Of a stretch of DNA of 64,000 nucleotides, positions 516-63,372 are shown one piece after another; position 1 is the first letter of the stretch; the number at the start of each line of letters is the position of its first letter. Position numbers and translations under genes: made by a program. The stretch lies in IMG/VR virus record IMGVR_UViG_3300049320_000001, positions 1-64,000 of that record; one strand, given 5' to 3'. The notes beneath the pieces are model-generated. The model was not told where the DNA came from. It saw only the letters and a list, made by a program, of their open reading frames with translations, and ran no database searches. Source of the DNA: a virus (taxonomy: Duplodnaviria > Caudoviricetes).

Positions 516-3253
516 GCGTGATGGAGTACGAGAAGCACGGTTACGCCGAGCACATCGGTGACACCCTGCTTGCAGGCATCGTGGCTCGGGACGTGTACAC
601 CCACTGGGACGATGACGTTTGGCGTAACGCCTTCATCATGGCTGTGGGTGACTACTGCGAGAACCAGGTCATCGCCCACCAGGACGAACTGAACAAGTGG
701 ATCAAGATCGCCCAGGAGAAGGCGGTCGCCAAGGCCCGTCAGTCCGTGGTGAAGGCCTACCTGGTCTCCAAGGCTGCTCAGACCAAGGTGGACCCCTACA
801 CCCGTCGTGATGGCACCCACGTCGGTGGCTACAAGCGCACCTACCGTCCTGCTCGCTCTCCGCAGCAGGAGATCCCTCGGGGTCAGTCCATGCACCCCCA
901 GGACTACAACCGCGAGCAGAGCGCTGCCATGACGGCAGCGATGGTCGAGGCCTACAACCGCAAGGTGGACCCGAAGCACCACGGGTTGCAGACCGTCGCG
1001 TACTACATCGAGGACCCGATGGGGAACCTCCGCGTGGAGACCCCGGACCCTGGTAGCACTCCGTCCCTCAAGGATGGGGAGTTCGTCCGCCGTCAGCAGG
1101 CGCTGGGCTTCCAGAACCCTGCCAACTCCGGTCAGCACGCGGTCAACCTGGCTCAGGCCTTGGGTGCCAACCACGAGAAGGCTGGCTCTGCCGGTGCTGT
1201 CGTGCAGGGTGTCTCCGACATCGGCAAGGAGCACAACTGGTTCCAGCGGCTGTCCTCCATGTCGAACGTCCTGCACCACGCCACGGGTGGTTCTGGCGGT
1301 CCTGTGCCGGTCCAGGTGGCCACGGCGATGGGTGCTGCGGTGGGCCAGCACGGTCCCGAGGTCTCTCGGGTTCTGGGGCCGTCCATCCGTCGCTACTCCT
1401 ACAAGTACCGGGGGATGACTGCCTCTCCCGCCCAGTTCAACTCCACGGCACGTTCCGGCCTCCAGGAGGGTGAAGGTGGACCACGGCAGTTCGAGGCGCG
1501 TCTACTCCACACCTTGGCTTCTACTGACAAGTCAACGGGTGGACTTGGGGCCGTGCCGACTGACGCTCAGAACGCCCTGCTGCTCCAGAGTGGCTCCACG
1601 GCCCCGTCGCAGGGCTTCCTTCTCGACGCGAAGGGCAAGGTGACCCAGCAGGCTGTCGGTCACGCGGATGACCACTACGTCCCCTTCAACCTGGCCCAGT
1701 TGCACACCCTCAAGAACGGCTCGTACGTGCGTTCGAGGGCGTACGGCGGTCCCACCACTGAGGACGTCTCCCTGGCTATGCGTAGCGGGGCACGCCGGAT
1801 CTCCACCATCTCTCGTCACGGTGTGTACACGATCGAGTTCGACCCTCGGGCGAACACGAAGCGTTACGGCTACACCCCGCGCCAGGTCGTCCACCGCTAC
1901 GGGCGGCTGCTGGATGCCATCGAGAGCGGCAAGGTCAAGGACCCCAACAACGCTGACCAGATCCTCAAGTTGGACGCAAGGGGCTACGAGGTTGCCCTCC
2001 AGTCCCTCAAGGCGCAGTACCCCCTGCTGATCGCTGAAGTCCGCCACGAGGGCGCTGGTCAGATCCCTGCTCTTGAGGGTCGGCGCGCTGGCTCTGGTGA
2101 GAGGGACACCGGTTACGTCCGCCCGATGTACCTCAAGCCCAGTGATGCCAAGGCTGGCTACCACGACGCGCTGCTCAACCCTGGTGGCTCCAAGTCCTAC
2201 GACGAGTTGGAGGGCTACCGCTCTCTGAAGGCCACTCGTCTGAAGATGGAGAAGGCCAGGGCTGAGGAGATCCGCAGGCAGGAGCAGCAGCCACGCTCTG
2301 TCGCTGTTCAGCAGCACTACCGCACAGGCGGTGTCGTCCCCATCGGGGTGGCCCAGCGCAACCCAGGTGAGGCCAACCGGGCTGAGGCTGCTGGGACTGA
2401 CACAGGTGCAGTTGTGCGTAGTTACGACTACCGCCGTGACCCGTGGAGTGCTGAGCACCACGCGGAGATGCTGGGCCACGCTGAGGCTCTGATCCGTCAT
2501 CACCTCGCCCGCTCGCAGGAGACGGGGGAGAGGCCCGACGAGTTCGCCGTCGAGTGGTACAACATCTTCAAGGGTGCCCGTAACGGCGACCCCGACATGA
2601 TCGAGAAGTTGGAGAAGGTCCGCACGGGCGAAGGTGGCCACCGCGAGGACCTGATCGACGGCCTCAACACCCTCGACCTCGATGAGAGCGCTGACGGGGA
2701 CTCGGGCCTCATCACCCACTGGCAGGGCTTCCAGGACGGGTTGATCGAGAGCGGGGACGACGAGGGCTACGTCCGCGAGGTTGACCAGCACGGCGTGGAG
2801 AGTGTCGCGTCGGTCCAGGCCGATCCCGACTGGGCTGAGGCTGAGAAGCACCGGATCTTCACCATCTGGAAGAAGGACCCGAACCTCGGTGAGGCCAAGC
2901 GCAAGCAGGTCCACGAGTGGTTCGAGGAGCCTGCTGGCGAGAACGACCTCGGCTACGAGGAGACGGAGCCCAGGGGTGCTTACTGGGACGACCCGGAGTT
3001 GGACCTGGAGTTCGCCCACGAGGATGACTTCGGGCTTGCGCTGACCCCGTACCAGCAGATGGCCAACCGGATGGCGCGGGCCAAGGGTCAGAAGCCACCC
3101 TTCAAGCCTGCGGAGGACGCTGAGCCCACTGCTGTCGAGATCGACTCAGGGGCACGGGAGGGCATGACCGAGGAGGAGTTGGACGAGGCTGCTCGCAAGT
3201 ACGCCGAGAAGCAGATCCGCGACCTTGGTGGCCTTGACGATGACTACTCCTGA
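512..3253 (+). CDS. Large head accessory protein (913 aa) with degenerate JAB/MPN-like domain
   Basis: Between portal and MuF gene; ca. 1600-1860 FLLDAKG..VG....V....LKNGSYVRSRAYGGPTTEDV..A..SG..ISTISRHGVYTIEF follows the JAB pattern but lacks HxH; acidic C-terminus. Confidence 0.6.
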   Translation: MSVMEYEKHGYAEHIGDTLLAGIVARDVYTHWDDDVWRNAFIMAVGDYCENQVIAHQDELNKWIKIAQEKAVAKARQSVVKAYLVSKAAQTKVDPYTRRDGTHVGGYKRTYRPARSPQQEIPRGQSMHPQDYNREQSAAMTAAMVEAYNRKVDPKHHGLQTVAYYIEDPMGNLRVETPDPGSTPSLKDGEFVRRQQALGFQNPANSGQHAVNLAQALGANHEKAGSAGAVVQGVSDIGKEHNWFQRLSSMSNVLHHATGGSGGPVPVQVATAMGAAVGQHGPEVSRVLGPSIRRYSYKYRGMTASPAQFNSTARSGLQEGEGGPRQFEARLLHTLASTDKSTGGLGAVPTDAQNALLLQSGSTAPSQGFLLDAKGKVTQQAVGHADDHYVPFNLAQLHTLKNGSYVRSRAYGGPTTEDVSLAMRSGARRISTISRHGVYTIEFDPRANTKRYGYTPRQVVHRYGRLLDAIESGKVKDPNNADQILKLDARGYEVALQSLKAQYPLLIAEVRHEGAGQIPALEGRRAGSGERDTGYVRPMYLKPSDAKAGYHDALLNPGGSKSYDELEGYRSLKATRLKMEKARAEEIRRQEQQPRSVAVQQHYRTGGVVPIGVAQRNPGEANRAEAAGTDTGAVVRSYDYRRDPWSAEHHAEMLGHAEALIRHHLARSQETGERPDEFAVEWYNIFKGARNGDPDMIEKLEKVRTGEGGHREDLIDGLNTLDLDESADGDSGLITHWQGFQDGLIESGDDEGYVREVDQHGVESVASVQADPDWAEAEKHRIFTIWKKDPNLGEAKRKQVHEWFEEPAGENDLGYEETEPRGAYWDDPELDLEFAHEDDFGLALTPYQQMANRMARAKGQKPPFKPAEDAEPTAVEIDSGAREGMTEEELDEAARKYAEKQIRDLGGLDDDYS

Positions 3254-5690
3254 TCTTGAGGCACTGAGCCAGCCCTACCTTCCGAATGCCTCCTCTTCTC
3301 GGGAGGTGGACATCACGAAGTCGATGGCTCAGGTGTTCCTCACTGCTGTTGTCGCGGCCAAGATCCTGGACTGGTCAGGGCTGGGTCAGAGGTGGTCGAG
3401 GTCTGGGTTCAACACGGGTGACTTCGATGTCCAGATCTCGGGCCACTTCAAGGAGGCCTTCAAGGTCGGGATGTCTGTCTTGCTGGCTGAGGCAGCCATC
3501 TACGGCATCTCCAAGAAGGGCGTGGATGTCAAGGTCGAGGACAAGGTCATTCAGGACTGGTCCATCACCTATGCCGCTCAGATCGCTGAGCAGGTCGCCA
3601 ACCAGTCCACCATGGCGGTCAGAGAGATCGTCAACGCAGGGCTGAACCAGCGCCTTCCTGCCCAGGCCCTGGCGGATCGGGCTCAGGCTGCCTACGGGCT
3701 GGACCCGAGGTCGGCCAACACCTACCAGGCCTACATGAGCAGCAAGACCCTGCCCAAGAACAGCACCCCTATCGATGAGGTGTCGGCCCTGCTTGTGCAG
3801 CGGGCGATGACCATCGGGGACGTGAACACCTTCACGGGCATCAACTTCGGGGTCCAGTTGAGCCTGATGTCCGCTCTGGGGCACGGAATCCTTCCCACTG
3901 ATGCCCGCAAGGTGTGGCTCACCGCTCTGGATGAGCGGGTCTGTCCTACCTGTGGACCGATGGACGGTGTGGCAGTCCCGGTGAACGAGGTGTTCACCAT
4001 CCTCATGCCCCTGCCCAAGACCGCGAGGGGCAAGAACCGCAAGAGCGTGGACGCCATCGTCCCGCCGATCCACCCCAACTGCCGCTGCACCATCGTCCTG
4101 GAGGACGAGTTCCTCGGCGGGTTGATCACTCGTACGGCTCGGTACGACGCTGACGCCAACCACCTGGCTCGTCTGTTCTCCGAGCCGGAAGACCTGGTCG
4201 TCCAGAAGTTCTGGGAGTCCAACAAGCACCCCCGAGACGGCAAGGGGCGCTTTGCGGAGCGCTGGGGGAACATGAGTTCTGGCCAGCGAACTACGGCTGT
4301 CTACATGGGTGGGGCAGTTGGCATTGCCAGTGGGGCCATGATCGCGGACATCAGCAATCACCTGGTCAAGATGATCAAGGGCACGACTGAGGGCAAGTCG
4401 TGGTGGGACGTCAAGTACCCGACCTACACCTACTACAAGGCTCCTGTTGAACTCCCACCTAAGCCCACCTTGGCCAAGGAGACACTCAACAGTCTCGCTG
4501 CGAGGATGAACCTTCTACCTGAGTTCTCTCTCGGTGGGTCCAATCTGATTGAACAGACTTTCAAGAACCGTGACGAAGTCGCGTACCTGAAGCATCTATC
4601 AGAAGACATCAGGCAATGGACTGGTGTGTACAGGTTCAAGTCTGGTGGTTTCTCCCTAGGTAAGTACGAGACTCTTACCGAGATGGTGGAGAACGCTCCT
4701 GTCAGCGAAGAGACCATCTATCGCGGGATCAAGGGGAAGACCAGTGATCCCAAACTCAAGAAGGCGCTGGAGGAACTGACTGGCAAGTTGAGTCTTGTCG
4801 GTGAAGAAGTAGAACTACCACTTGCCTCTTGGACCAAGAACACCGAGACAGCAAAGATCTTCGCTGACGACATCCACAAGAGCGGCATTATCCTCCAGGT
4901 GAAGGGGGCTCGGGCTCTCAACATCAGCCCGATGTCACACCATGCCGAGGCTGAATGGCTGACGACTGGTCACTTCAAGGTGGTCTCTGTCGAGGCGAAG
5001 GACGCCCGGATGGGTGGCCGACTTCTCGTCACCTTGGTCCAGGTTGCCCATGTCGTGAAGGCGATGCCGCTCAATCTCATCTACCGGGACAGGTTGGGTC
5101 GGTTCGCTGCTGCGGGGGCTGGGGTTGCCGCCATCGGTGCGGGAGCCAAGGGTGCCCACTACATGGCAGTCGAGGCCCCCATTGCTGGGCGGACTCGTCC
5201 CGAGTTGAACTCACGGCTTCAGAAGACAGACCAGCGGATCAAGCACCTTCAGACCGGGACGTACATGCTCCCGCGTTCCTACCTGGATGCTCACAGGCGT
5301 GCGTGGGGGTTCCGCATCGGTCAAGACGCCCATGTCGATGCCCTCGCTGCCAAGATCAAGGAGGAGGGCTTCAAGAGGCCCATCACCCTCCACGTCTACA
5401 ACGACCAGTCCGTCATCTGGGACGGTCAGCACCGCCTAGAGGCTGCCTACCGACTCGGTCGTAGTCGCATCCCTGTTCGCGTGGTGCGTCGGCACGAGGA
5501 CTTCGATCCCTTCCAGGAGGGGTTGCTGGGGCTGATCGAGGAGCGCCGTACCCGCAGGCTCCGGCAGGAGATCGCCCGACGTCCAAACCAGAATGTGGGC
5601 AGTCTAAAGATCGGCCAGACCCCGCGTCAGAGGATTAGCAACAACGTCAACAGGGTCTTCATCGCCCGTGGCGAGGGCCAGACCGACTAA
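3240..5690 (+). CDS. MuF/SPP1 gp7-like head morphogenesis protein fused to ADP-ribosyltransferase and ParB/Srx-like domains
   Basis: KVWLTALDERVCPTCGPMDG..PPIHPNCRCTI (MuF); IYRGI..LASWT..AEAEWL (R-S-ExE ART); VDALAAKIKEEGFKRPI..WDGQHRLEAA..L..IPVRV (ParB-N). ATG 3240 preferred over TTG 3225. Confidence 0.85.
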   Translation: MTTPDLEALSQPYLPNASSSREVDITKSMAQVFLTAVVAAKILDWSGLGQRWSRSGFNTGDFDVQISGHFKEAFKVGMSVLLAEAAIYGISKKGVDVKVEDKVIQDWSITYAAQIAEQVANQSTMAVREIVNAGLNQRLPAQALADRAQAAYGLDPRSANTYQAYMSSKTLPKNSTPIDEVSALLVQRAMTIGDVNTFTGINFGVQLSLMSALGHGILPTDARKVWLTALDERVCPTCGPMDGVAVPVNEVFTILMPLPKTARGKNRKSVDAIVPPIHPNCRCTIVLEDEFLGGLITRTARYDADANHLARLFSEPEDLVVQKFWESNKHPRDGKGRFAERWGNMSSGQRTTAVYMGGAVGIASGAMIADISNHLVKMIKGTTEGKSWWDVKYPTYTYYKAPVELPPKPTLAKETLNSLAARMNLLPEFSLGGSNLIEQTFKNRDEVAYLKHLSEDIRQWTGVYRFKSGGFSLGKYETLTEMVENAPVSEETIYRGIKGKTSDPKLKKALEELTGKLSLVGEEVELPLASWTKNTETAKIFADDIHKSGIILQVKGARALNISPMSHHAEAEWLTTGHFKVVSVEAKDARMGGRLLVTLVQVAHVVKAMPLNLIYRDRLGRFAAAGAGVAAIGAGAKGAHYMAVEAPIAGRTRPELNSRLQKTDQRIKHLQTGTYMLPRSYLDAHRRAWGFRIGQDAHVDALAAKIKEEGFKRPITLHVYNDQSVIWDGQHRLEAAYRLGRSRIPVRVVRRHEDFDPFQEGLLGLIEERRTRRLRQEIARRPNQNVGSLKIGQTPRQRISNNVNRVFIARGEGQTD

Positions 5691-33677: not shown

Positions 33678-33947
33678 ATGGCTATGTCCAAAGTGAGTGA
33701 AGCCCTTGCCAGGCCTACTCGTACCGGTACGCAGTTCGGTGCCGCCGAGATCCTGGTGCAGTTCGTGGAGGCCTTTCTCAGGGACCTCAACGAGGCTCAG
33801 CACGTGGCCCTGGTAGGTGTACTGACCCTGGTGGTTGGCACGATCCAGGTCCTCATCGAGAACAAGACCGGCGTGGGCTTCCTGCGCCAGGTGCCTCCTA
33901 CTGAGGTGCCTGTCATCGATCCCCCCGCAGACGGGCCGGAGGACTGA
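33678..33947 (+). CDS. Putative holin
   Basis: Hydrophobic segment VALVGVLTLVVGTIQVLIE..GVGFLR; directly before endolysin. Confidence 0.6.
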   Translation: MAMSKVSEALARPTRTGTQFGAAEILVQFVEAFLRDLNEAQHVALVGVLTLVVGTIQVLIENKTGVGFLRQVPPTEVPVIDPPADGPED

Positions 33948-34642
33948 TGGCAACCTCGTACAACGGTTGGCCTGCCTCAGCAGACCCGGCAGCCATCAAC
34001 ATCAACCGCAACGCGGTTGCACGTGGAACGACGGTCAGGTTCCCGGCTGGCCTCAAGAACGGCGATGTGGCCTTCGTCCTGGGGTACGTGGCCGGGGAAC
34101 TCCACAAGCGAGTCGAGCGTGCCGGGACGGGGGTGTGGGGCTACGCCTACCGGCAGAACCGCAACGCCCGCAACCTGTCCTGTCATGCCTCGGGGACTGC
34201 CTTCGACTGGAACGCCCCTCGGCACCCCAACGGCAAGTCGGGCACCTTCACGTCCAGGCAGAAGGCCACCATCCACGCGATCCTCAACGAGGTCGAGCAC
34301 GCGGTGAAGTGGGGCGGGGACTTCACCGGCACCAAGGACGAGATGCACTTCGAGATCTGCGTCGGTGCTCGGGACCTGGCTGCCATCGCCAAGCGGCTAC
34401 GGGCTCGGCTTGCTGCCCAGCGCCCTGTCCCGGCCTGGTGGACCACCAACCTGCGTCGTGGGATGACCAACCGCTCGGACATCCGCATCGTGCGGCAGAA
34501 GTTGCACCTCCCACTGGACGGGAGCGCCAACGATGACGACTTCGACGCCGAACTCGATGGTTACGTCCGTCGCTTCCAGCAGAGGTCTGGACTGGAGCCT
34601 GACGGAGTCGTGGGCAAACTGACAGCGAAGGTGTTGGGCTAA
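33947..34642 (+). CDS. Endolysin: M15-family Zn peptidase plus peptidoglycan-binding domain
   Basis: SYNGWPA..WGYAYR..NLSCHASGTAFDWNA..WGGDF..DEMHFEI; C-terminal VRRFQQRSGL.PDGVVGKLT. Confidence 0.9.
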   Translation: MATSYNGWPASADPAAININRNAVARGTTVRFPAGLKNGDVAFVLGYVAGELHKRVERAGTGVWGYAYRQNRNARNLSCHASGTAFDWNAPRHPNGKSGTFTSRQKATIHAILNEVEHAVKWGGDFTGTKDEMHFEICVGARDLAAIAKRLRARLAAQRPVPAWWTTNLRRGMTNRSDIRIVRQKLHLPLDGSANDDDFDAELDGYVRRFQQRSGLEPDGVVGKLTAKVLG

Positions 34643-37778: not shown

Positions 37779-38969
37779 TCAGACCCCGATGGTCTGGCGC
37801 TCGCGCTGGTTGGCTTCCTCTGCTGCGAAGAAGCGCTCCAGTTCGGCGTCAGTCGGCTCCCTGGTCCCCCAGTGGACGTTGGCCTTGGCCAAGATCTCGT
37901 CCTCATCGATCTGGAGGTGGAGCATCTGCTGGATCATGTGATCCTCGTGCGGGAGGTGTCCGGCGACGAGACCGAACTGCTCCATCGTGCGATCGATCCT
38001 GGACACGGAGTGGACGCAGAACGCGGCCTCGCCCTTGCCAGGATCGGTGCGGCTGACGACTCGCCGGATGTTGCCCGACGAACCCTTGTGGATGCGGTAC
38101 AGCCGCCCCTTGGAGCCCACCACGTGGAAGTAGTTGAACCTTGCGTACTCCTCACGCTGCTCCTCGGTGAGCAGGCCCAGGAGAGTCCCCAGAGCCCGCT
38201 CGGAGGCCGACTGCGTTGCCAGCCGCTCTGCCTCGACCCGCTGGAAGAGAGCCAGGGCTTCCGCCTGCTGGCGGGCCTGCCTCTCCTCGGGAGTCTCGAC
38301 AGGCCGTGCGTAGGTCAGTCCTCTACGAGCGACTTCCCGCTGAACATCGGCACCGTTGTACGCCTGGACGCCGTAGCCCACCCAGTTCCGCTCCCAGATC
38401 GTCTGGTTGGCAATGTAGGCGTTGGTGGAGATGGTGTACTGCTCGTTCCATCTACTCCAGGTGTAGGTATCGGTCATCAGCGTCACCGTGTTCGTCATGG
38501 CCGCTGTGGGCAGCCCGTTGATGTTGAAGATGTACTGCCCAGCGGTGTTGGTGGTACTGGACGTCATGGTGATCTCGAAGGGATGGTCTCGGACATGTGT
38601 GTAGAACCTGGTGACCCCGCCTGTTCCTTCGTGACGCACCAGCCCCAGCGTGTCGTAGCCCCTGTTCACCGTGACGGTCTGGTTGACCGGCCTGGAGTAC
38701 GTGGACACTGGGGGATGACGGATGATCTCCGTCATCTTCCGGTACCGCTCTGCCCACTGTCGCCGCCCGGTGTCCCAGGGCTGCTTGGCGGGAGAGTGAG
38801 CCACCAGGACCGTGTCCTCACCCTTGGGCCGGGTGCGGAGGACCCTGTTGCATCGAGCGCACGATCCGTATCCACCGCTGTAGTGCTGCTTGCCGTTCCG
38901 CAGCGGGTAGTAGTGGATGGCCTTGTAGATCGTGGCTGGGGCTTCACCAGCCCCCTGGCACTTAGCCAC
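37779..38969 (-). CDS. Partner of ubiquitin-like protein; N-terminal Cys motif and conserved-looking C-terminal domain with FCVH
   Basis: GTG 38969 overlaps the upstream stop; LL..L..EQ.EEY..F.V.GS.G..YRI..G..GNI..FCVH..LP.ED.M..Q.L.L..DE..L..AN. Confidence 0.65.
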   Translation of the reverse strand: MAKCQGAGEAPATIYKAIHYYPLRNGKQHYSGGYGSCARCNRVLRTRPKGEDTVLVAHSPAKQPWDTGRRQWAERYRKMTEIIRHPPVSTYSRPVNQTVTVNRGYDTLGLVRHEGTGGVTRFYTHVRDHPFEITMTSSTTNTAGQYIFNINGLPTAAMTNTVTLMTDTYTWSRWNEQYTISTNAYIANQTIWERNWVGYGVQAYNGADVQREVARRGLTYARPVETPEERQARQQAEALALFQRVEAERLATQSASERALGTLLGLLTEEQREEYARFNYFHVVGSKGRLYRIHKGSSGNIRRVVSRTDPGKGEAAFCVHSVSRIDRTMEQFGLVAGHLPHEDHMIQQMLHLQIDEDEILAKANVHWGTREPTDAELERFFAAEEANQRERQTIGV

Positions 38970-39252
38970 CGACCAACTGCGGGGCCATGATGATCTTCTC
39001 GGCGGTCGGGTCGAAGGTGTCGATCCGCTCGCCCTTCTCGCCCTGCGCGTTGACCTTGTAGGCCAGGTAGCGCTTCTCCTTGAGGGCCTCGAACTGCTTC
39101 TTGGCAGCCGCGACCTCGTCGGGGTTGTCCTTGCTCCACATGAATCGAGAGTCACCCGATCCGTCGAGCACGTACAGGCCGTGCTGACCCTGGGCCAGGA
39201 CCTCGTTCTCGGCCTGGCTGGCGGTCATCTTCTCGCTTGCGGTGGTGGTCAT
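38962..39252 (-). CDS. Putative ubiquitin-like (beta-grasp) protein ending in VGG
   Basis: Predicted beta-beta-alpha-beta-beta-beta order; C-terminus KIIMAPQLVGG-stop. Confidence 0.55.
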   Translation of the reverse strand: MTTTASEKMTASQAENEVLAQGQHGLYVLDGSGDSRFMWSKDNPDEVAAAKKQFEALKEKRYLAYKVNAQGEKGERIDTFDPTAEKIIMAPQLVGG

Positions 39253-46924: not shown

Positions 46925-47434
46925 TTAGATGAAGCCCAAGATGCGGGCACACGTCCAGGGTTGCCATCCCCTGTCCAGGAAGCCCCGGTAGGCGACCTGG
47001 TCTTGCATCCACGGCGGTGCCTGGTCAGCCGTCAGGCTGGGGTCGCCTCCGTAGGTGAGCCAGAAGGACCTGTCCATCTGGTAGGCCCCTCGGTAGGTGC
47101 CGGAGCCAGAGACTGCTCGGTATCCCTTGGCTCCTCCCTCGCACTTGCGGAGTCGCTGCACTCGGTCTGAGGCAGCCCAAGACACCGCTCCAACAGGTGC
47201 GGGTCGTACAGGTGCCACTCGCTCGGTTCTGGGAGCAGAGTGACGGCTTCGGCTTGCCTTCTTCTGAGTTGTTCCCCTGCCATCGAGGATGGGGGTGGGA
47301 ACAGGGTCAGCAGCAGGCTGCGATACAACCTGCGCGCTAGTCGCCGTGACCTGCTGTGGCACATCACGACCCTCCGTCCTCAGGCCCAGGATCACGAGCA
47401 TGACCATGAGTCCAAGCGAAAGAGTTCTCTTCAT
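46925..47434 (-). CDS. Secreted Rpf-like lytic transglycosylase
   Basis: Signal peptide MKRTLSLGLMVMLVILGL; LRKCEGG..GTYRGAYQMD..W..YGG..A.P..QD..A..RGWQPW.CA. Confidence 0.8.
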   Translation of the reverse strand: MKRTLSLGLMVMLVILGLRTEGRDVPQQVTATSAQVVSQPAADPVPTPILDGRGTTQKKASRSRHSAPRTERVAPVRPAPVGAVSWAASDRVQRLRKCEGGAKGYRAVSGSGTYRGAYQMDRSFWLTYGGDPSLTADQAPPWMQDQVAYRGFLDRGWQPWTCARILGFI

Positions 47435-47705
47435 CGAGTAGTTCCTTTGTTCGGCGGATCGCGTCCGCAAAGCCTCGACCGTAGTCTCGGCTCTTCGTGG
47501 CGTGGTCTTCCGGGTCCGGCAATGGAACCACCAGACGCTTGTTCTCCTCCACTGCATCTGCGATCACCGTTGCGAGATGAACTCGGTGATCGTCAGCGAA
47601 GGCAACAGTGTGACCGCACCCGCAAATACCCCAAGTCCCTTGCTCACTTTGGTGTTGATGCTTGTCGAGCACTTCCAGGATGAGGTTGTCCAGCGGTGCG
47701 TTCAC
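47364..47705 (-). CDS. Hypothetical protein
   Basis: RBS GAGGAGG before GTG 47705; H..CGCG..H..H. Confidence 0.55.
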   Translation of the reverse strand: MNAPLDNLILEVLDKHQHQSEQGTWGICGCGHTVAFADDHRVHLATVIADAVEENKRLVVPLPDPEDHATKSRDYGRGFADAIRRTKELLDEENSFAWTHGHARDPGPEDGGS

Positions 47706-47825: not shown

Positions 47826-48767
47826 CTACTTCGGACTAGGTGCCGTACCGGGATAGATGTACGTCGGCTGGTACGGGTTGCAACCGTGCTCGATGCACTC
47901 GTGCCGGTTGTAGTTGTCCACGCCGCCGTAGCCACGGATCTCCGCAGCCTTCTTGCGAGCCTCAGCCTCGGCCACAGCGACCTCAGCCTGGGCCTTGGTC
48001 AGGTTGGCCCGTGCCTCAGCCTCCTTGGCCTGAGCCTCAGCCACACGACGCTGTCCGTCGATGATGGCCTGCTGCGCCTGCTTGCCCGCCTCACCGACGA
48101 GGGTCGGCACACCGATGAGAGGCTGGAACTTGTTGTAGAACTCGACCTCTGTCGGGGTGGTGCGGTTCACCAGTTCCGGCACGAGGGCCAGCACCTTCTT
48201 CTCCCACTCGGCCTTGGTAGCCGGGTTGAAGACCAGGTCACGCCAGTTGTACTCCTGGCTGATGCGGTCCATGGCCGTCTCCAGCGGGGTCTCGATGTAG
48301 AGCCGCTGGATCTCGCGCCACCCGCCCGGGACCTCGTTCGGGCCGTTGTTGAAGGATGCCCCGTAGCGCCGACCGAGGTTCAGGTGGAACTGCACGATGG
48401 GCGACTTCTCGGCGTCCTTGCCCTCACCGCTGGCGCAGTCGGTGTTGAGGTAATACTGCAACTGCCCCGGCACCGCCAACTCCACGCCGTCCTTGGACAG
48501 GACATGGATCGGGTCACGGTCGTGACCCTTGCCCTCGGTGAAGTCCACGACCCGCTGGTCCGAGGGGTAGGTGTAGGTGTGGCCACCGGAGTCCCAGTCA
48601 CCTCGCTGCCCACCAGGGACACAGCGGATGAACTTCTGGGCTGCCGGGACGACGGCACCACCCTCGAACTGGAGGGCGACCATCTGCTGCTCGGGTCGAG
48701 GCCCGACGCAACTGGTGAGGGAGAGCATGGCGAGCACCGCCATGATCACCAACAGGACCTTCTTCAC
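47826..48767 (-). CDS. SPFH/band-7-like lipoprotein
   Basis: Lipobox-like LSLTSC; V.SKDG.EL.V..Y.LN..; C-terminal EA-rich coiled coil. Confidence 0.75.
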   Translation of the reverse strand: MKKVLLVIMAVLAMLSLTSCVGPRPEQQMVALQFEGGAVVPAAQKFIRCVPGGQRGDWDSGGHTYTYPSDQRVVDFTEGKGHDRDPIHVLSKDGVELAVPGQLQYYLNTDCASGEGKDAEKSPIVQFHLNLGRRYGASFNNGPNEVPGGWREIQRLYIETPLETAMDRISQEYNWRDLVFNPATKAEWEKKVLALVPELVNRTTPTEVEFYNKFQPLIGVPTLVGEAGKQAQQAIIDGQRRVAEAQAKEAEARANLTKAQAEVAVAEAEARKKAAEIRGYGGVDNYNRHECIEHGCNPYQPTYIYPGTAPSPK

Positions 48768-49263: not shown

Positions 49264-49417
49264 CATCGGCCCCCTGCTGCGAGTGGTCGTTCTGCACCGG
49301 GGATGGCCAGGCGTCGGGTCCTTCGTAGTGACACTCCAGCCCGTCTGGACACGGACAAGAGGGGTCACCGTGCGGGCAGTAGATGACGGTCCGCGAAGGC
49401 GACTTCTCGCCCGTCAT
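49256..49417 (-). CDS. Small Cys-rich protein
   Basis: CPHGDPSCPCPDGLECHY. Confidence 0.55.
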   Translation of the reverse strand: MTGEKSPSRTVIYCPHGDPSCPCPDGLECHYEGPDAWPSPVQNDHSQQGADDG

Positions 49418-49716
49418 CGACTCAGTGCCTGGGTGATGAGCCCGACAATGAAAGCGGCCACGGCAACCATCGCCATGGCCGTTACGACGTAGTCCAGGAA
49501 GACGACGCCATCGATGATCTTCAGTTGGTAGGTGGCAACTGCTCCGAAGGACAGCCAGTGAGACAGGCAGTACGGGCAACCAATGAGTTGCCCGAACCAC
49601 TTGCTCTTGAGCATGACCTTCTTGCGGAGCGGCTCAGTGACCTTGGTACGGGCGATGGTGAAGGCCACCGACGCCACCGAAGCGGCAAGGATGAGGAACT
49701 GGGTGTACCTCAGCAC
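49414..49716 (-). CDS. DUF1360-like membrane protein
   Basis: EPLR..G.LIGCPYCLSHW with flanking TM helices. Confidence 0.65.
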   Translation of the reverse strand: MLRYTQFLILAASVASVAFTIARTKVTEPLRKKVMLKSKWFGQLIGCPYCLSHWLSFGAVATYQLKIIDGVVFLDYVVTAMAMVAVAAFIVGLITQALSR

Positions 49717-50144
49717 ACGCAACCCCCACGGGTGCTCTTGACCCTGCCCATGGAGAGGCCGCGCAGGTCGTGCCACTCCTCGGTGCGCTCGTCGTGGGCG
49801 GACTCCACCTCGTGGTAGAAGTTCCACATGGCGTCGGAGTCCTCCTCCGAGCGGTTCTCGTCCCACCACGCCATGAACTCGGCCATGGAGGGCATGGACG
49901 GCCTGTCGTCCATCGGGTCGTACTCGGCGTCCGGATGCCACGCCGGGAGCGCCTTCGCCTCCTCGACCGTCTCCTCCTCCGGGTCAGGGAGGACGGCGTC
50001 CATGTCGTTCAGGAGGTCATCGATGTTGGTGAGGCAGCAGGTTGCCCCCTCCACGACCTCCTGGGATCGACTGGTGTCGGCCTCAGAAGTCGTCGTCTCC
50101 TGCTCCGAGTCCTGCGAACGCTGCTGCTTGGTCTTCTGAACCAT
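49710..50144 (-). CDS. Pup-like protein with acidic C-terminal extension
   Basis: Disordered Q/E/T N-terminus then NIDDLLNDMDAVL (cf. Pup DDLLDEIDDVL); ends RGGCVC; RBS GAGGAG. Confidence 0.6.
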   Translation of the reverse strand: MVQKTKQQRSQDSEQETTTSEADTSRSQEVVEGATCCLTNIDDLLNDMDAVLPDPEEETVEEAKALPAWHPDAEYDPMDDRPSMPSMAEFMAWWDENRSEEDSDAMWNFYHEVESAHDERTEEWHDLRGLSMGRVKSTRGGCVC

Positions 50145-50448
50145 GACTCTCCTCAGTGGTGTCTCCGTTGGAATCGGTGATGGTCCCGTCGCTCCAGAAC
50201 TTCCTCCAGAAGCGGACGGGGGTGGTGGTGCGCGTGAAGGACAGACCGGTGAGGTCGTCCACGAGTGTGATCTCCCAAGGCTCGCCAACCTCGGGCTCGG
50301 TGATGCGGTCGTACGCGATCCACTTGCCGTCACGGCGTGCCCCCCTGGCTCGATCACCAGGGGAACGGAGCACCTTCTTGACCACGCAGTTCGTGTGGTG
50401 GTTCGACAGTTCCGTGAACACGATCAACAGATCGACCGTCGCGGGCAT
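50083..50448 (-). CDS. Hypothetical protein
   Basis: RBS AGGAGGAG. Confidence 0.6.
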   Translation of the reverse strand: MPATVDLLIVFTELSNHHTNCVVKKVLRSPGDRARGARRDGKWIAYDRITEPEVGEPWEITLVDDLTGLSFTRTTTPVRFWRKFWSDGTITDSNGDTTEESHGSEDQAAAFAGLGAGDDDF

Positions 50449-60580: not shown

Positions 60581-60662
60581 GGTCGAGTGGTGGAACTGGT
60601 AGACACACAGCACTCAAACTGCTGCGCCGCAAGGCGTGAGGGTTCGACTCCCTCCTCGACCA
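60581..60662 (+). tRNA. trnL: tRNA-Leu(CAA), CCA not encoded
   Basis: Acceptor GGTCGAG/CTCGACC-A, D loop TGGTAGAC, anticodon arm CAGCA-CTCAAAC-TGCTG, long variable arm, GGTTCGACTCC. Confidence 0.95.
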
Positions 60663-60663
60663 C

Positions 60664-63372
60664 GTGAAGATCATCAGAAGCCCCAGGGGCATCGTGCTAC
60701 CGAAGAGAACAGAGTCCAACTTCTTCCACGTTCACGCACACTCGCGCTACTCGTGGAACGACGCCTTGCCTGAGGTCAAGGACATGGTCTCAACCGTGTC
60801 TGCGATGGGGCACAAGGCCCTCGCACTGACAGACCACGGCAACATGGCTGGGTCGGTGCAGTTGTACAAGGAGTGCATGAAGGCTGGACTCATGCCCTTC
60901 CCTGGCACAGAGGCCTACTTCGTCAAGGACCGCCAGGACAAGACTGCGAAGCGCTTCCATCTAGGCCTCCTGGCCGTCAACGCCGATGGTTACCGTGCGC
61001 TGGCCAGGTTGTCCAGCAGATCGCACACCAGGGAGAACTTCCATCACAAGCCGTTGATCGACTGGACGGACCTTGCTGAATGGAAGGAGAACGGCTGGAC
61101 GACCGGCCTTGCTCTGACGTCTGGCTGCTACTTCGGCCTGACGATCCAGACTCTCATCAGCGATGGTCCAGAGGCGGCGAAGAGCGTCCTCCAGCGGTTT
61201 GCCTGGTTGGTTCCCAACACCTTCGTGGAGTTGCAGAACCACAAGATCGATCAGAAGCCGGTCAGTGAAGACGACATCGCAGCCGCACTTGTCCACCTGG
61301 CAGACGAACTCGGCCTGCCCGTCGTCATCGCCCAGGACGCCCACTACTGCGAAGCCTCGGACAAGCCGGTGCACGAAACCCTGAAGCGCGTAGTCGCCTT
61401 CGGACCTGACACGGATGACGCGGTGTTCCCAGGTGATGGATTCCACCTGGCGGAAGCCCAGTGGGTCGCTGCCCACCACCAGGATGGGCACTGGGCTAAA
61501 GCGGAAGAGGGTTGGGGACATCTGCTGGACCTTCACGCACTGTCCATCCCCGAGTTGGACAGGTACACGTACAACATCCCGAAGGTAGCGGAGGACCCGG
61601 ATGCTGTCCTGGAAGGGCGTTGTCGCCAGGCGCTCAACGAGCGAACACTTCCGACGCCTTACGCAGATCGTCTACATAGCGAACTGTCCATCGTGCGCGA
61701 CACGGGGATGGCGGGATACCTACTTCTGGTCGCTGAAGTCACGGACTGGTGTGCAGCACATGGCGTGTTCACACAGGCTCGTGGAAGCGCTAGCGGATCA
61801 GTCATCTGCTGGCTTCTCGGAATCACCCAATGTGACCCTATTCGCTACAACCTACGGTTTGAACGGTTCATCTCCCGCGACCGCACAAAGCCTCCTGACA
61901 TTGATCTGGATGTCGAGGATTCACGACGACAGGACCTCATTGACTGGCTGAAGACCAGGTTCTCTGTGGTGCAGATCGGTACTTTCCTCACCTACGGCAT
62001 CAATGACGACGAGAAGACCCCTGAGGATGACAAGGGCAAGGGCTCGCTCATCGTGGCCTTCAAGAAGGTGGCCAAGAAGAACGGGGCCTCGAAGGAGGAG
62101 TTGGACGCCATCGAGACCATCAGGGACATCCCTGATGAGTGGCGTGATCGCCTCATGGCCCTCGCGGACCGAGGAGTGTGCAAGGCAGTAGGCACTCACG
62201 CTGGTGGCCTCATCGTCACCACCACGGACGACGAGATGGACGACCTGGTCCCCAAGATGCTCATCGTCACCAAGAACGAGGCTGGCTACCGCATTGTGAG
62301 CCAGTACACGATGGACGATGTGGAGGCGTTGGGCCTTGTCAAACTGGACGTACTTGGACTTCGTACCTTGTCCCTTCTGCGGCGCTGTACTGAACTTCTG
62401 GGAAGAGACGTCCGAGACGGGCTCGACTGGATTCCACTCGATGACACCCGGACATTCACTACGATCCGGAACGGTGCCACGGCTGGAGTGTTCCAACTGG
62501 AGGGTGGTACAGCCCAGCGTGGTTGCCGTGAGGTGAAGGTGAGGTCCCTCAAGGACATCATCGTCATCCAGGCTCTCTACCGTCCCGCTGTGATGAAGAG
62601 CGGCGGCAAGGACGCCTACATCGCTCGGCGTGAAGGCCGCGAGAAGGCCCCTGAGTACCACCCCTTGATCATGCGTAGCGTCAAGGAGACCTTCGGGGTG
62701 ATCATCTTCCAGGAGCAGGTCATCTCGATCCTCAGGGACCTGGGCATGGACCCCGACGAACTCACTGACTTCCTCAAGGCAATCAAGGCCTCCCAGAAGG
62801 CAGACATGAAGAAGGCTGCCGTCACAATGGAGGCAGCCAGGGAGCGAGTCTGGGAGTTGTGCGAGAAGCATGGCATCGGGGCTGAGGACTACGCCCTCGT
62901 CTGGAAGGCCATCGAGGGCTTCGCGGAGTACGGCTTCAACCGCGCTCACGCCACTGCGTACGGCATCACCGCCTACCGCTGTGCCTACCTCAAGACCCAC
63001 TACCCGTTGGAGTTCGCCACTGCGTTGCTCCAGACGGCTGAGGGCACCAAGAAGGAGGCCATGTACATCTCAGCGGTGCGGCAGATGGGCATCTCCATCC
63101 GCAGGCCGCACGTCAACATCAGCGGCAAGTCCTACTCCATCGACCGCAAGGCACGGAGCGTGAGGAAGGGCCTGGTGTCCATCCTGGGGATCGGTGAGCG
63201 CACCTCTGAGGAGTTGGAGGAGCACGCTCCCTACACCTCTGTTCAGGACATCATCGACCGCTGCTCTGCCACCAGGGTGAACGGTGGGAAGAAATGGGCC
63301 AAGGACAAGTCCCTCAACGGCCACCTGGCCAAGTTGAAGGACATCGGAGCACTGGAGGGCCTTGATGGATGA
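60664..63372 (+). CDS. dnaE: DNA polymerase III alpha-like (PHP plus polymerase)
   Basis: HVHAHSRYS..D..ALTDHG, ARGSASGS, PPDIDLD, HAGG, VKLDVLGL, FQEQV, YGFNRAHA.AY, P.VN.S. Confidence 0.96.
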   Translation: MKIIRSPRGIVLPKRTESNFFHVHAHSRYSWNDALPEVKDMVSTVSAMGHKALALTDHGNMAGSVQLYKECMKAGLMPFPGTEAYFVKDRQDKTAKRFHLGLLAVNADGYRALARLSSRSHTRENFHHKPLIDWTDLAEWKENGWTTGLALTSGCYFGLTIQTLISDGPEAAKSVLQRFAWLVPNTFVELQNHKIDQKPVSEDDIAAALVHLADELGLPVVIAQDAHYCEASDKPVHETLKRVVAFGPDTDDAVFPGDGFHLAEAQWVAAHHQDGHWAKAEEGWGHLLDLHALSIPELDRYTYNIPKVAEDPDAVLEGRCRQALNERTLPTPYADRLHSELSIVRDTGMAGYLLLVAEVTDWCAAHGVFTQARGSASGSVICWLLGITQCDPIRYNLRFERFISRDRTKPPDIDLDVEDSRRQDLIDWLKTRFSVVQIGTFLTYGINDDEKTPEDDKGKGSLIVAFKKVAKKNGASKEELDAIETIRDIPDEWRDRLMALADRGVCKAVGTHAGGLIVTTTDDEMDDLVPKMLIVTKNEAGYRIVSQYTMDDVEALGLVKLDVLGLRTLSLLRRCTELLGRDVRDGLDWIPLDDTRTFTTIRNGATAGVFQLEGGTAQRGCREVKVRSLKDIIVIQALYRPAVMKSGGKDAYIARREGREKAPEYHPLIMRSVKETFGVIIFQEQVISILRDLGMDPDELTDFLKAIKASQKADMKKAAVTMEAARERVWELCEKHGIGAEDYALVWKAIEGFAEYGFNRAHATAYGITAYRCAYLKTHYPLEFATALLQTAEGTKKEAMYISAVRQMGISIRRPHVNISGKSYSIDRKARSVRKGLVSILGIGERTSEELEEHAPYTSVQDIIDRCSATRVNGGKKWAKDKSLNGHLAKLKDIGALEGLDG

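Follow-up and report, generated by a model that had tools for sequence, protein, structure and literature searches.

A phage protein resembling half of Pup, joined to a conserved cysteine-bearing domain and encoded beside DUF1360

Introduction

In mycobacteria and other Actinomycetota, the Pup-proteasome system serves virulence and survival under stress. Among phage proteins, lambda CIII is a pseudo-substrate inhibitor of the host AAA+ protease FtsH, and it is a small early protein with an amphipathic helix. In Pup, residues 21-51 form a helix that joins the Mpa coiled coil in antiparallel orientation with the N-terminus pointed into the pore, and the disordered N-terminus is the threader that enters the pore (PMC8755798). 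Pup-dependent degradation pulls on the covalently attached substrate, and a linear Pup-DHFR fusion was recruited and engaged by Mpa without ligation (PMC8755798). PafA and Dop bind the C-terminal half of Pup, and Pup is bound by them as two short helices (PMC8223512). Full-text literature searches returned no paper on a phage Pup-like protein or on a phage factor aimed at the Pup-proteasome system.

We analyzed a window of 64,000 nucleotides, which covers the opening 64 kb of an IMG/VR virus record of 81,654 bp, rated complete by CheckV. The genome is that of a siphovirus-like actinophage with 62% GC, a 1,907-aa tape measure, and MuF-like and protease-like head proteins. An earlier note on this DNA had described a Pup-like protein, here called P0001; by our analysis, it is best likened to one half of Pup joined to a different part. 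In the literature, its closest counterpart is the engineered linear Pup-substrate fusion (e.g. Pup-DHFR), in which an N-terminal Pup is likewise peptide-bonded to a folded domain (PMC8755798). Whereas the engineered fusions carry full-length Pup, P0001 is natural and keeps only the Mpa-directed half.

Gene identification and start site

The open reading frame of P0001 was confirmed as a real, coding gene. The GC content at codon positions 1, 2, and 3 was 0.62/0.43/0.91, which is the signature of a real gene in this phage genome, compared with 0.56/0.82/0.55 in the in-frame stretch 5' of the ATG; the third-position value of 0.91 against that of the upstream stretch thus identifies P0001 as coding. 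The ATG at 50144 is preceded, at a distance of 4 nt, by GAGGAG, a good ribosome-binding site. The gene call of the source (P0002) starts at Val31 instead, 30 codons downstream. Residues 1-30 are kept in the relatives, so we preferred the ATG at 50144 over the P0002 start. With the P0002 call, the entire conserved Pup-like segment at the N-terminus is lost, and automatic annotation would therefore conceal the likeness to Pup. The gene belongs to a block of small leftward genes, and consensus-like promoter matches are located upstream of it, near 55.2-55.4 kb. The translation agrees exactly with that quoted in the earlier note and comprises a Ser/Thr/Gln/Glu-rich N-terminus, CCLTNIDDLLNDMDAVL, an acidic extension with 5 Trp, and an RGGCVC end. 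The coordinates of the features are collected in Table 1.

Table 1. Positions of P0001, its segments, neighboring and other genes in the window, and example Pup loci on other viral contigs
Feature	Position	Strand	Remarks
P0001, Pup-like chimeric protein	49710..50144	-	144 aa; stop codon included
Ribosome-binding site of P0001, GAGGAGAG	50147..50154	-	3-4 nt before the ATG; read from the sequence
Source's gene call P0002	49710-50054	-	114 aa
Residues 1-24, disordered polar N-terminus	50073..50144	-	equivalent to the pore-threading segment of Pup; AF2 pLDDT <50
Residues 25-52, amphipathic helix with conserved CC	49989..50072	-	equivalent to Pup ~22-47 (ARC/Mpa coiled-coil binding); AF2 helix 25-51
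Residues 65-130, folded acidic domain	49755..49952	-	LPxWHPDAEYDP loop, then two helices with ER..WH..RGL; AF2 pLDDT about 90-95
Residues 131-144, flexible tail	49713..49754	-	ends in conserved C-x-C; pLDDT 50-58
DUF1360 small membrane protein	49414..49716	-	100 aa; GTG start, 7-nt overlap with the end of P0001
Predicted lipoprotein	47826-48767	-	313 aa
Secreted protein with Rpf-type transglycosylase-like domain	46925-47557	-	
AAA ATPase P0012	40458-42047	-	529 aa
Protein ending LVGG	38962-39252	-	96 aa
458-aa open reading frame	37779-39155	-	
Endolysin	33947-34642		strand opposite to P0001
MuF-like head morphogenesis protein	3225-5690	+	
tRNA-Leu(CAA)	60581-60663	+	
DnaE-like polymerase	60664-63372		
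Example viral Pup loci	L144:2863-3093; L141:3004-3198; L138:2923-3111		on IMG/VR viral contigs

Comparison with the Pup family

The search against Pup family profiles that the earlier note had named as a check returned Pup as the sole family match of P0001, with a resemblance above chance. The Pfam Pup profile matched residues 5-60 of P0001 over profile positions 4-60 of 69 with 17.5 bits (E 0.008), a score below the Pfam gathering threshold of 27 bits. Pup was the top family in 9 of 10 relatives, with E between 1.6e-4 and 1, and a six-frame HMM search of the phage genome found one place, the P0001 region (E 1.1e-4). When the family was compared by hhalign with 5 diverse Pups, the probability was 94.0% (E 1.3e-7, 45 columns), with family positions 1-51 aligned to Pup 1-46; against about 105 genomic Pups, which were collected with a degenerate DNA pattern for this profile-profile comparison, it was 90.6%, with family 32-52 aligned to Pup 27-47, corresponding to the helix. 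Additionally, a local Pup HMM aligned P0001, P0003, and P0004 from Met1 to the helix end. A profile search of the PDB also placed Pup at the top, but with an E of only 0.79.

The specificity of the likeness was assessed with two controls. In the shuffle control, 8 of the 10 members scored above all 300 of their own shuffles, and P0008 barely scored against Pup. For the second control, six-frame ORF pieces were taken from the window and from every fetched locus, 11,716 pieces with 1.64 million residues in total; the non-Pup matches above 10 bits were all members of the family, and the best unrelated piece reached 7.9 bits. Composition-corrected BLAST against individual Pups gave weak scores of 17-29 bits, with E values that are meaningful only in tiny databases. 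A closest relation to the Pup of Nocardioides (44% identity) was rejected, as it vanished with composition-based statistics on, and we therefore drew no host inference from it.

P0001 shares with Pup (PF05639) a disordered polar N-terminus beginning M-A/V-Q-x-T-K, then a spacer of similar length, and then an acidic amphipathic helix with a DDLL..(I/M)D.VL core, so that the alignment spans residue 1 to Pup residue ~47. Across the family, the N-terminus reads M-x-Q-K-T-K, compared with MAQEQTK in Pup. AF2 predicts the same layout as in Pup: residues 1-24 are disordered, and residues 25-51 form a helix. The spacing between Met1 and the helix core is also kept: the ID motif was found at residues 38-45 in 11 of 11 members, compared with 36-38 in 97 of 105 Pups. 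As a result, the Pup-like N-terminus claimed earlier stands at the profile level, from Met1 through the ARC/Mpa-binding helix in the Pfam, hhalign, and local HMM comparisons, although its score stays below the Pfam threshold. Taken at this level, the N-terminal region is probably either derived from Pup or a functional mimic of it.

The likeness does not extend through the C-terminal half. The Pup alignments stop at Pup position 46-55, and the sequence beyond is unrelated, with the family-conserved LPxWHPDAEYDP. The PafA/Dop-binding second helix of Pup (Pup ~48-61, the AEDFV..Y.Q segment) is missing from P0001, and the protein ends in CVC rather than in GGQ or GGE, in agreement with the earlier statement that the ligatable end is absent. 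The RGGCVC end is present in P0001, but of this end the family conserves the terminal C-x-C and not the GG that precedes CVC. Lacking the second helix and the GGQ/E end, P0001 cannot be ligated. Furthermore, P0001 is twice as long as Pup due to a folded cysteine-bearing C-domain, and it is encoded by a phage, with no dop, pafA, arc, or prcBA nearby or elsewhere in the 81.6-kb genome. Searches of that genome for the Pup-ligase (PafA/Dop) and proteasome families gave no match, and any such activity must therefore rely on host machinery. As four features fail (the threshold score, the second helix, the GGQ/E end, and the genomic context), P0001 was not classified as a strict member of the Pup family. 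On the evidence of these alignments, it is a protein that keeps exactly the Mpa-directed half of Pup and discards the ligase-directed half.

A further reading is that P0001 acts on the enzymes that attach and remove Pup. In such a case, the retained first helix (equivalent to Pup 38-47) would fill the Pup groove of the ligase or depupylase as an unligatable inhibitor. The DDLL..D.VL segment is the best-conserved match to Pup, and Pup binds PafA and Dop as two short helices (PMC8223512); however, the parts of Pup that reach the active site, namely the second helix and the GGQ/E end, are missing from P0001, and a conserved N-terminal threader would be needless for this purpose. We consider an action of this kind very improbable.

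Domain layout of P0001

In the family alignment, the near-invariant residues of the helix were V30, A34, C36, C37, L38, I41, D42, and L45. Toward its N-terminal side, the helix has a conserved half (EVVExAxCCL) that is specific to the family and not shared by Pup, so the helix may have another partner, for example the C-terminal CxC of P0001 itself or DUF1360.

Residues 65-130 were confidently predicted to fold as an extended loop followed by two helices. Foldseek searches of the C-domain fold against PDB and BFVD gave nothing at E<=0.001, and VIA wide / VIA-align returned only generic helical matches, with a best Z of 4.2. In the tail, C142 is near-invariant and C144 invariant. The cysteines of the family are thus arranged in pairs, CC in the helix and CxC at the extreme end, with variations: in P0011 and P0013 the CCL-x-D motif is duplicated and the end is CGCGC, and P0010 keeps the Pup-like part with the helix CC absent. 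The pairing suggests a metal or redox site.

Family members and linkage to DUF1360

About 11 relatives of P0001 were found, and each of them comes from a metagenome assembly or a Logan assembly. When 1.84 billion representative proteins were searched exhaustively with HMMER, nine proteins were obtained at E<=1e-3, and word-indexed searches added 2. No relative was detected by tblastn in cultured phages (50,697 phage records), by megablast of the P0001 region, or by scans of IMG/VR and GTDB genomes with the family patterns, and the JGI metagenome scan recovered only the contig of P0009. A search for shorter proteins of 30-63 aa, a range that excludes Pup itself at about 64 aa, yielded nothing. 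P0001 had no match in PHROGs or NCBIfam and no usable match in the ESM Atlas. The family alignment comprises four blocks: the M-x-Q-K-T-K N-terminus; S-EVVE-A-CCL-x-x-ID-x-LL; LP-x-WHPDAEYDP...RP; and ER-x-E-x-WH-x-x-RGL, followed by the terminal C-x-C.

The gene of P0001 is linked to a gene for a DUF1360 protein (PF07098, 28.9 bits, above the gathering threshold of 21). In every informative relative, the DUF1360 gene was located within four genes downstream of the P0001 homologue. It was directly adjacent or overlapping in 7 of 9 contexts (the window, P0003, P0006, P0008, P0010, P0011, and P0013); for P0009 the distance was one gene, and for P0007 it was three. The other neighbors differ among the contigs of the relatives. 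The DUF1360 partners share 38-64% identity and are better conserved than the Pup-like proteins, with FTI..TK..P.R...W.G.L..CPYC.SHWL invariant in 6 partners. Their hydropathy shows a first transmembrane segment, a basic loop with a net charge of +3 to +5, and CPYC opening the next hydrophobic stretch. According to the positive-inside rule, the basic loop would place CPYC at the cytoplasmic face, within reach of P0001. The tblastn search for the DUF1360 protein in cultured phages gave no match, and DUF1360 is without known function in the literature. Band_7 genes occur near two relatives of P0001, and Band_7/SPFH was considered as a third component of the module; this candidate was rejected, as the 313-aa lipoprotein of the window shows no homology to the Band_7 genes.

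The linkage and the cysteines raise the question of whether Pup matters to P0001 at all. It may instead be a cytosolic cysteine-rich, metal- or redox-active subunit or regulator of DUF1360, in which the helix likeness is convergent or a relic without ARC contact. A shared metal or redox site is suggested by the conserved CC and CxC together with the invariant CPYC of the partner; the pair is kept across relatives with as little as 26-30% identity to P0001, and the similarity to Pup is sub-threshold and weak after composition correction. However, the likeness is not confined to the acidic helix but begins at Met1 and follows the order and spacing of Pup, it is specific against shuffles and real ORFs, and P0010 keeps the Pup-like part without the helix CC. 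We regard a role unrelated to the Pup-proteasome system as less likely than not, though it deserves weight.

Compared with the earlier note, the conserved folded cysteine domain, the coupling to DUF1360, and the sub-threshold Pfam score are new. The decoy or adaptor function that the note put forward is plausible.

Proposed mode of action

Our leading reading, which we hold tentatively and at somewhat less than even chances, is that P0001 mimics Pup independently of any ligase: it would dock on the ARC/Mpa of the host, act there as a pseudo-substrate or trap, and may be held at the membrane. P0001 would be a chimeric early phage protein whose first ~52 residues either come from the degradation-tag half of Pup or mimic it closely. 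In place of the second helix and the GGQ/E end, it has a folded acidic domain in which pairs of cysteines are conserved. The protein would dock directly on the host ARC/Mpa ring, offer its N-terminus to the pore, and compete with pupylated proteins as a pseudo-substrate, as lambda CIII does on FtsH. The cysteine-rich domain probably contacts the co-translated DUF1360 protein via the cytoplasmic-face CPYC, possibly through a shared metal or disulfide; the trap would thereby be kept at the membrane or become difficult to unfold. In such a scheme, the phage would directly plug into the host proteasome ATPase or jam it. The binding of ARC/Mpa, engagement of the pore, inhibition, the DUF1360 contact, and the binding of metal are properties that we infer for P0001.

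The comparison with lambda CIII is a functional analogy only. Both are small early phage proteins with an amphipathic helix and a proposed role as competing substrate; however, there is no sequence relation between them, the target of P0001 would be ARC/Mpa-20S and not FtsH, and P0001 would act by mimicking the host's own tag.

The same architecture, a natural linear Pup-X fusion of the type engaged by Mpa (PMC8755798), would also suit a built-in degron or timer. The Pup half would then make P0001 and the cargo of its C-domain (e.g. DUF1360) a short-lived direct substrate of the ARC-proteasome without pupylation, limiting the activity of the module to a time window of infection and regulating the phage's own membrane protein with no inhibition of the host proteasome. 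The conserved extreme N-terminus and spacer length are expected if pore engagement matters, and the P0001 gene is tightly coupled translationally with DUF1360. Nevertheless, all that is weak in the case for ARC binding is equally weak here, the canonical lysis cassette lies at another place, with the endolysin on the other strand, and a toxicity of DUF1360 or a need for timing is an assumption. Both the degradation of P0001 with its cargo and the timing role that would follow from it appear unlikely to us.

As an adaptor, P0001 would bind a host or phage target through the C-domain and deliver it in trans to ARC/Mpa through the Pup half, or else recruit ARC to the membrane via DUF1360. Two modules, a docking element and a separate conserved folded domain, are consistent with this, as is the conserved membrane partner. 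On the other hand, known Pup-dependent degradation acts on a covalently attached substrate, so delivery by a non-covalent adaptor would need very tight binding; no target was identified, and the C-domain is without a recognisable fold. We rate the adaptor role as decidedly unlikely. A related possibility, to which we give little credence as well, is that actinophages have made a ligase-free weapon out of the host's degradation tag, in which the Pup half and a cysteine-rich targeting domain, anchored by DUF1360, capture ARC/Mpa at the membrane or feed chosen host proteins to the proteasome.

If this last possibility is true, P0001 would represent the first case of a virus mimicking a bacterial ubiquitin-like tag, comparable to the hijacking of the ubiquitin-proteasome system by eukaryotic viruses. 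As a natural ARC/Mpa binder without pupylation, P0001 would give direct evidence of conflict between phages and the bacterial proteasome. An ARC/Mpa-binding P0001 would also be a ready-made probe or inhibitor scaffold for Mpa and a natural transplantable ligase-independent degron for Actinomycetota. As the cysteine-rich C-domain and DUF1360 are both uncharacterised, the pair gives DUF1360 its first testable functional context.

Canonical Pups on viral contigs

An IMG/VR scan with real Pups resulted in ten loci (L137-L146) with seven distinct sequences, all canonical Pups of 59-77 aa ending in GGQ or GGE. Like P0001, they are virus-borne and have the DDLLDEID helix and a polar N-terminus; they differ from it in length and in the GGQ/GGE end, which makes them look ligatable. 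Five of these records were searched for Pup ligase/Dop and for DUF1360, and none was found. In two records the neighbors were checked; they are phage-like and include a DNA methyltransferase, a weak terminase match, a Cas4-like exonuclease, and a thymidylate synthase. The Gordonia Pup had no tblastn match in cultured phages at E<=1, and a phage-borne ligatable Pup seems not to be described in the literature. Since canonical Pups occur on viral contigs, phages appear to capture pup, which makes it plausible that P0001 originated by capture followed by truncation.

Host and other genes in the window

The phage host is probably an actinobacterium, and we assumed that it has ARC. The clues are limited to the public runs containing the stretch, which are all soil metagenomes, and to the few matches of the endolysin, most of which are lysin A proteins from Mycobacterium and Gordonia phages with an identity of about 32%. 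The best identity of the DnaE-like polymerase was 39.5%, to Gordonia phage GMA6.

The phage encodes a classic-clade AAA ATPase, P0012 (PF00004, E 2.4e-13), whose best PDB relatives are the Cdc48/p97 D2 and PAN/FtsH-type modules. Its gene is located about 8 kb downstream of the Pup-like gene on the same strand. The N-terminal 260 residues gave no Pfam domain and, read by eye, no obvious coiled coil, and the C-terminus is without the penultimate-Tyr docking motif. We considered P0012 as a candidate partner of P0001; no AAA gene was called in the stretches around the relatives of P0001.

The 96-aa protein of the same strand ends in LVGG directly before the stop codon, overlaps the start region of the 458-aa open reading frame, and had no match in PHROGs or in a PDB sequence search; the 458-aa frame itself had no Pfam or PHROGs match. 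The secreted protein with the Rpf-type transglycosylase-like domain (PF06737, E 2.5e-8) is encoded among the minus-strand small genes, far from the endolysin. Three genes downstream of the P0001/DUF1360 module, the predicted lipoprotein matched phrog_200 (E 4.6e-21) and, read by eye, has a C-terminal Ala/Glu/Lys-rich helical stretch. The tRNA-Leu(CAA) was the only tRNA found and ends one base before the DnaE-like polymerase gene. Finally, PHROG matches at residues 695-759 of the MuF-like head morphogenesis protein correspond to a C-terminal ParB-like domain.
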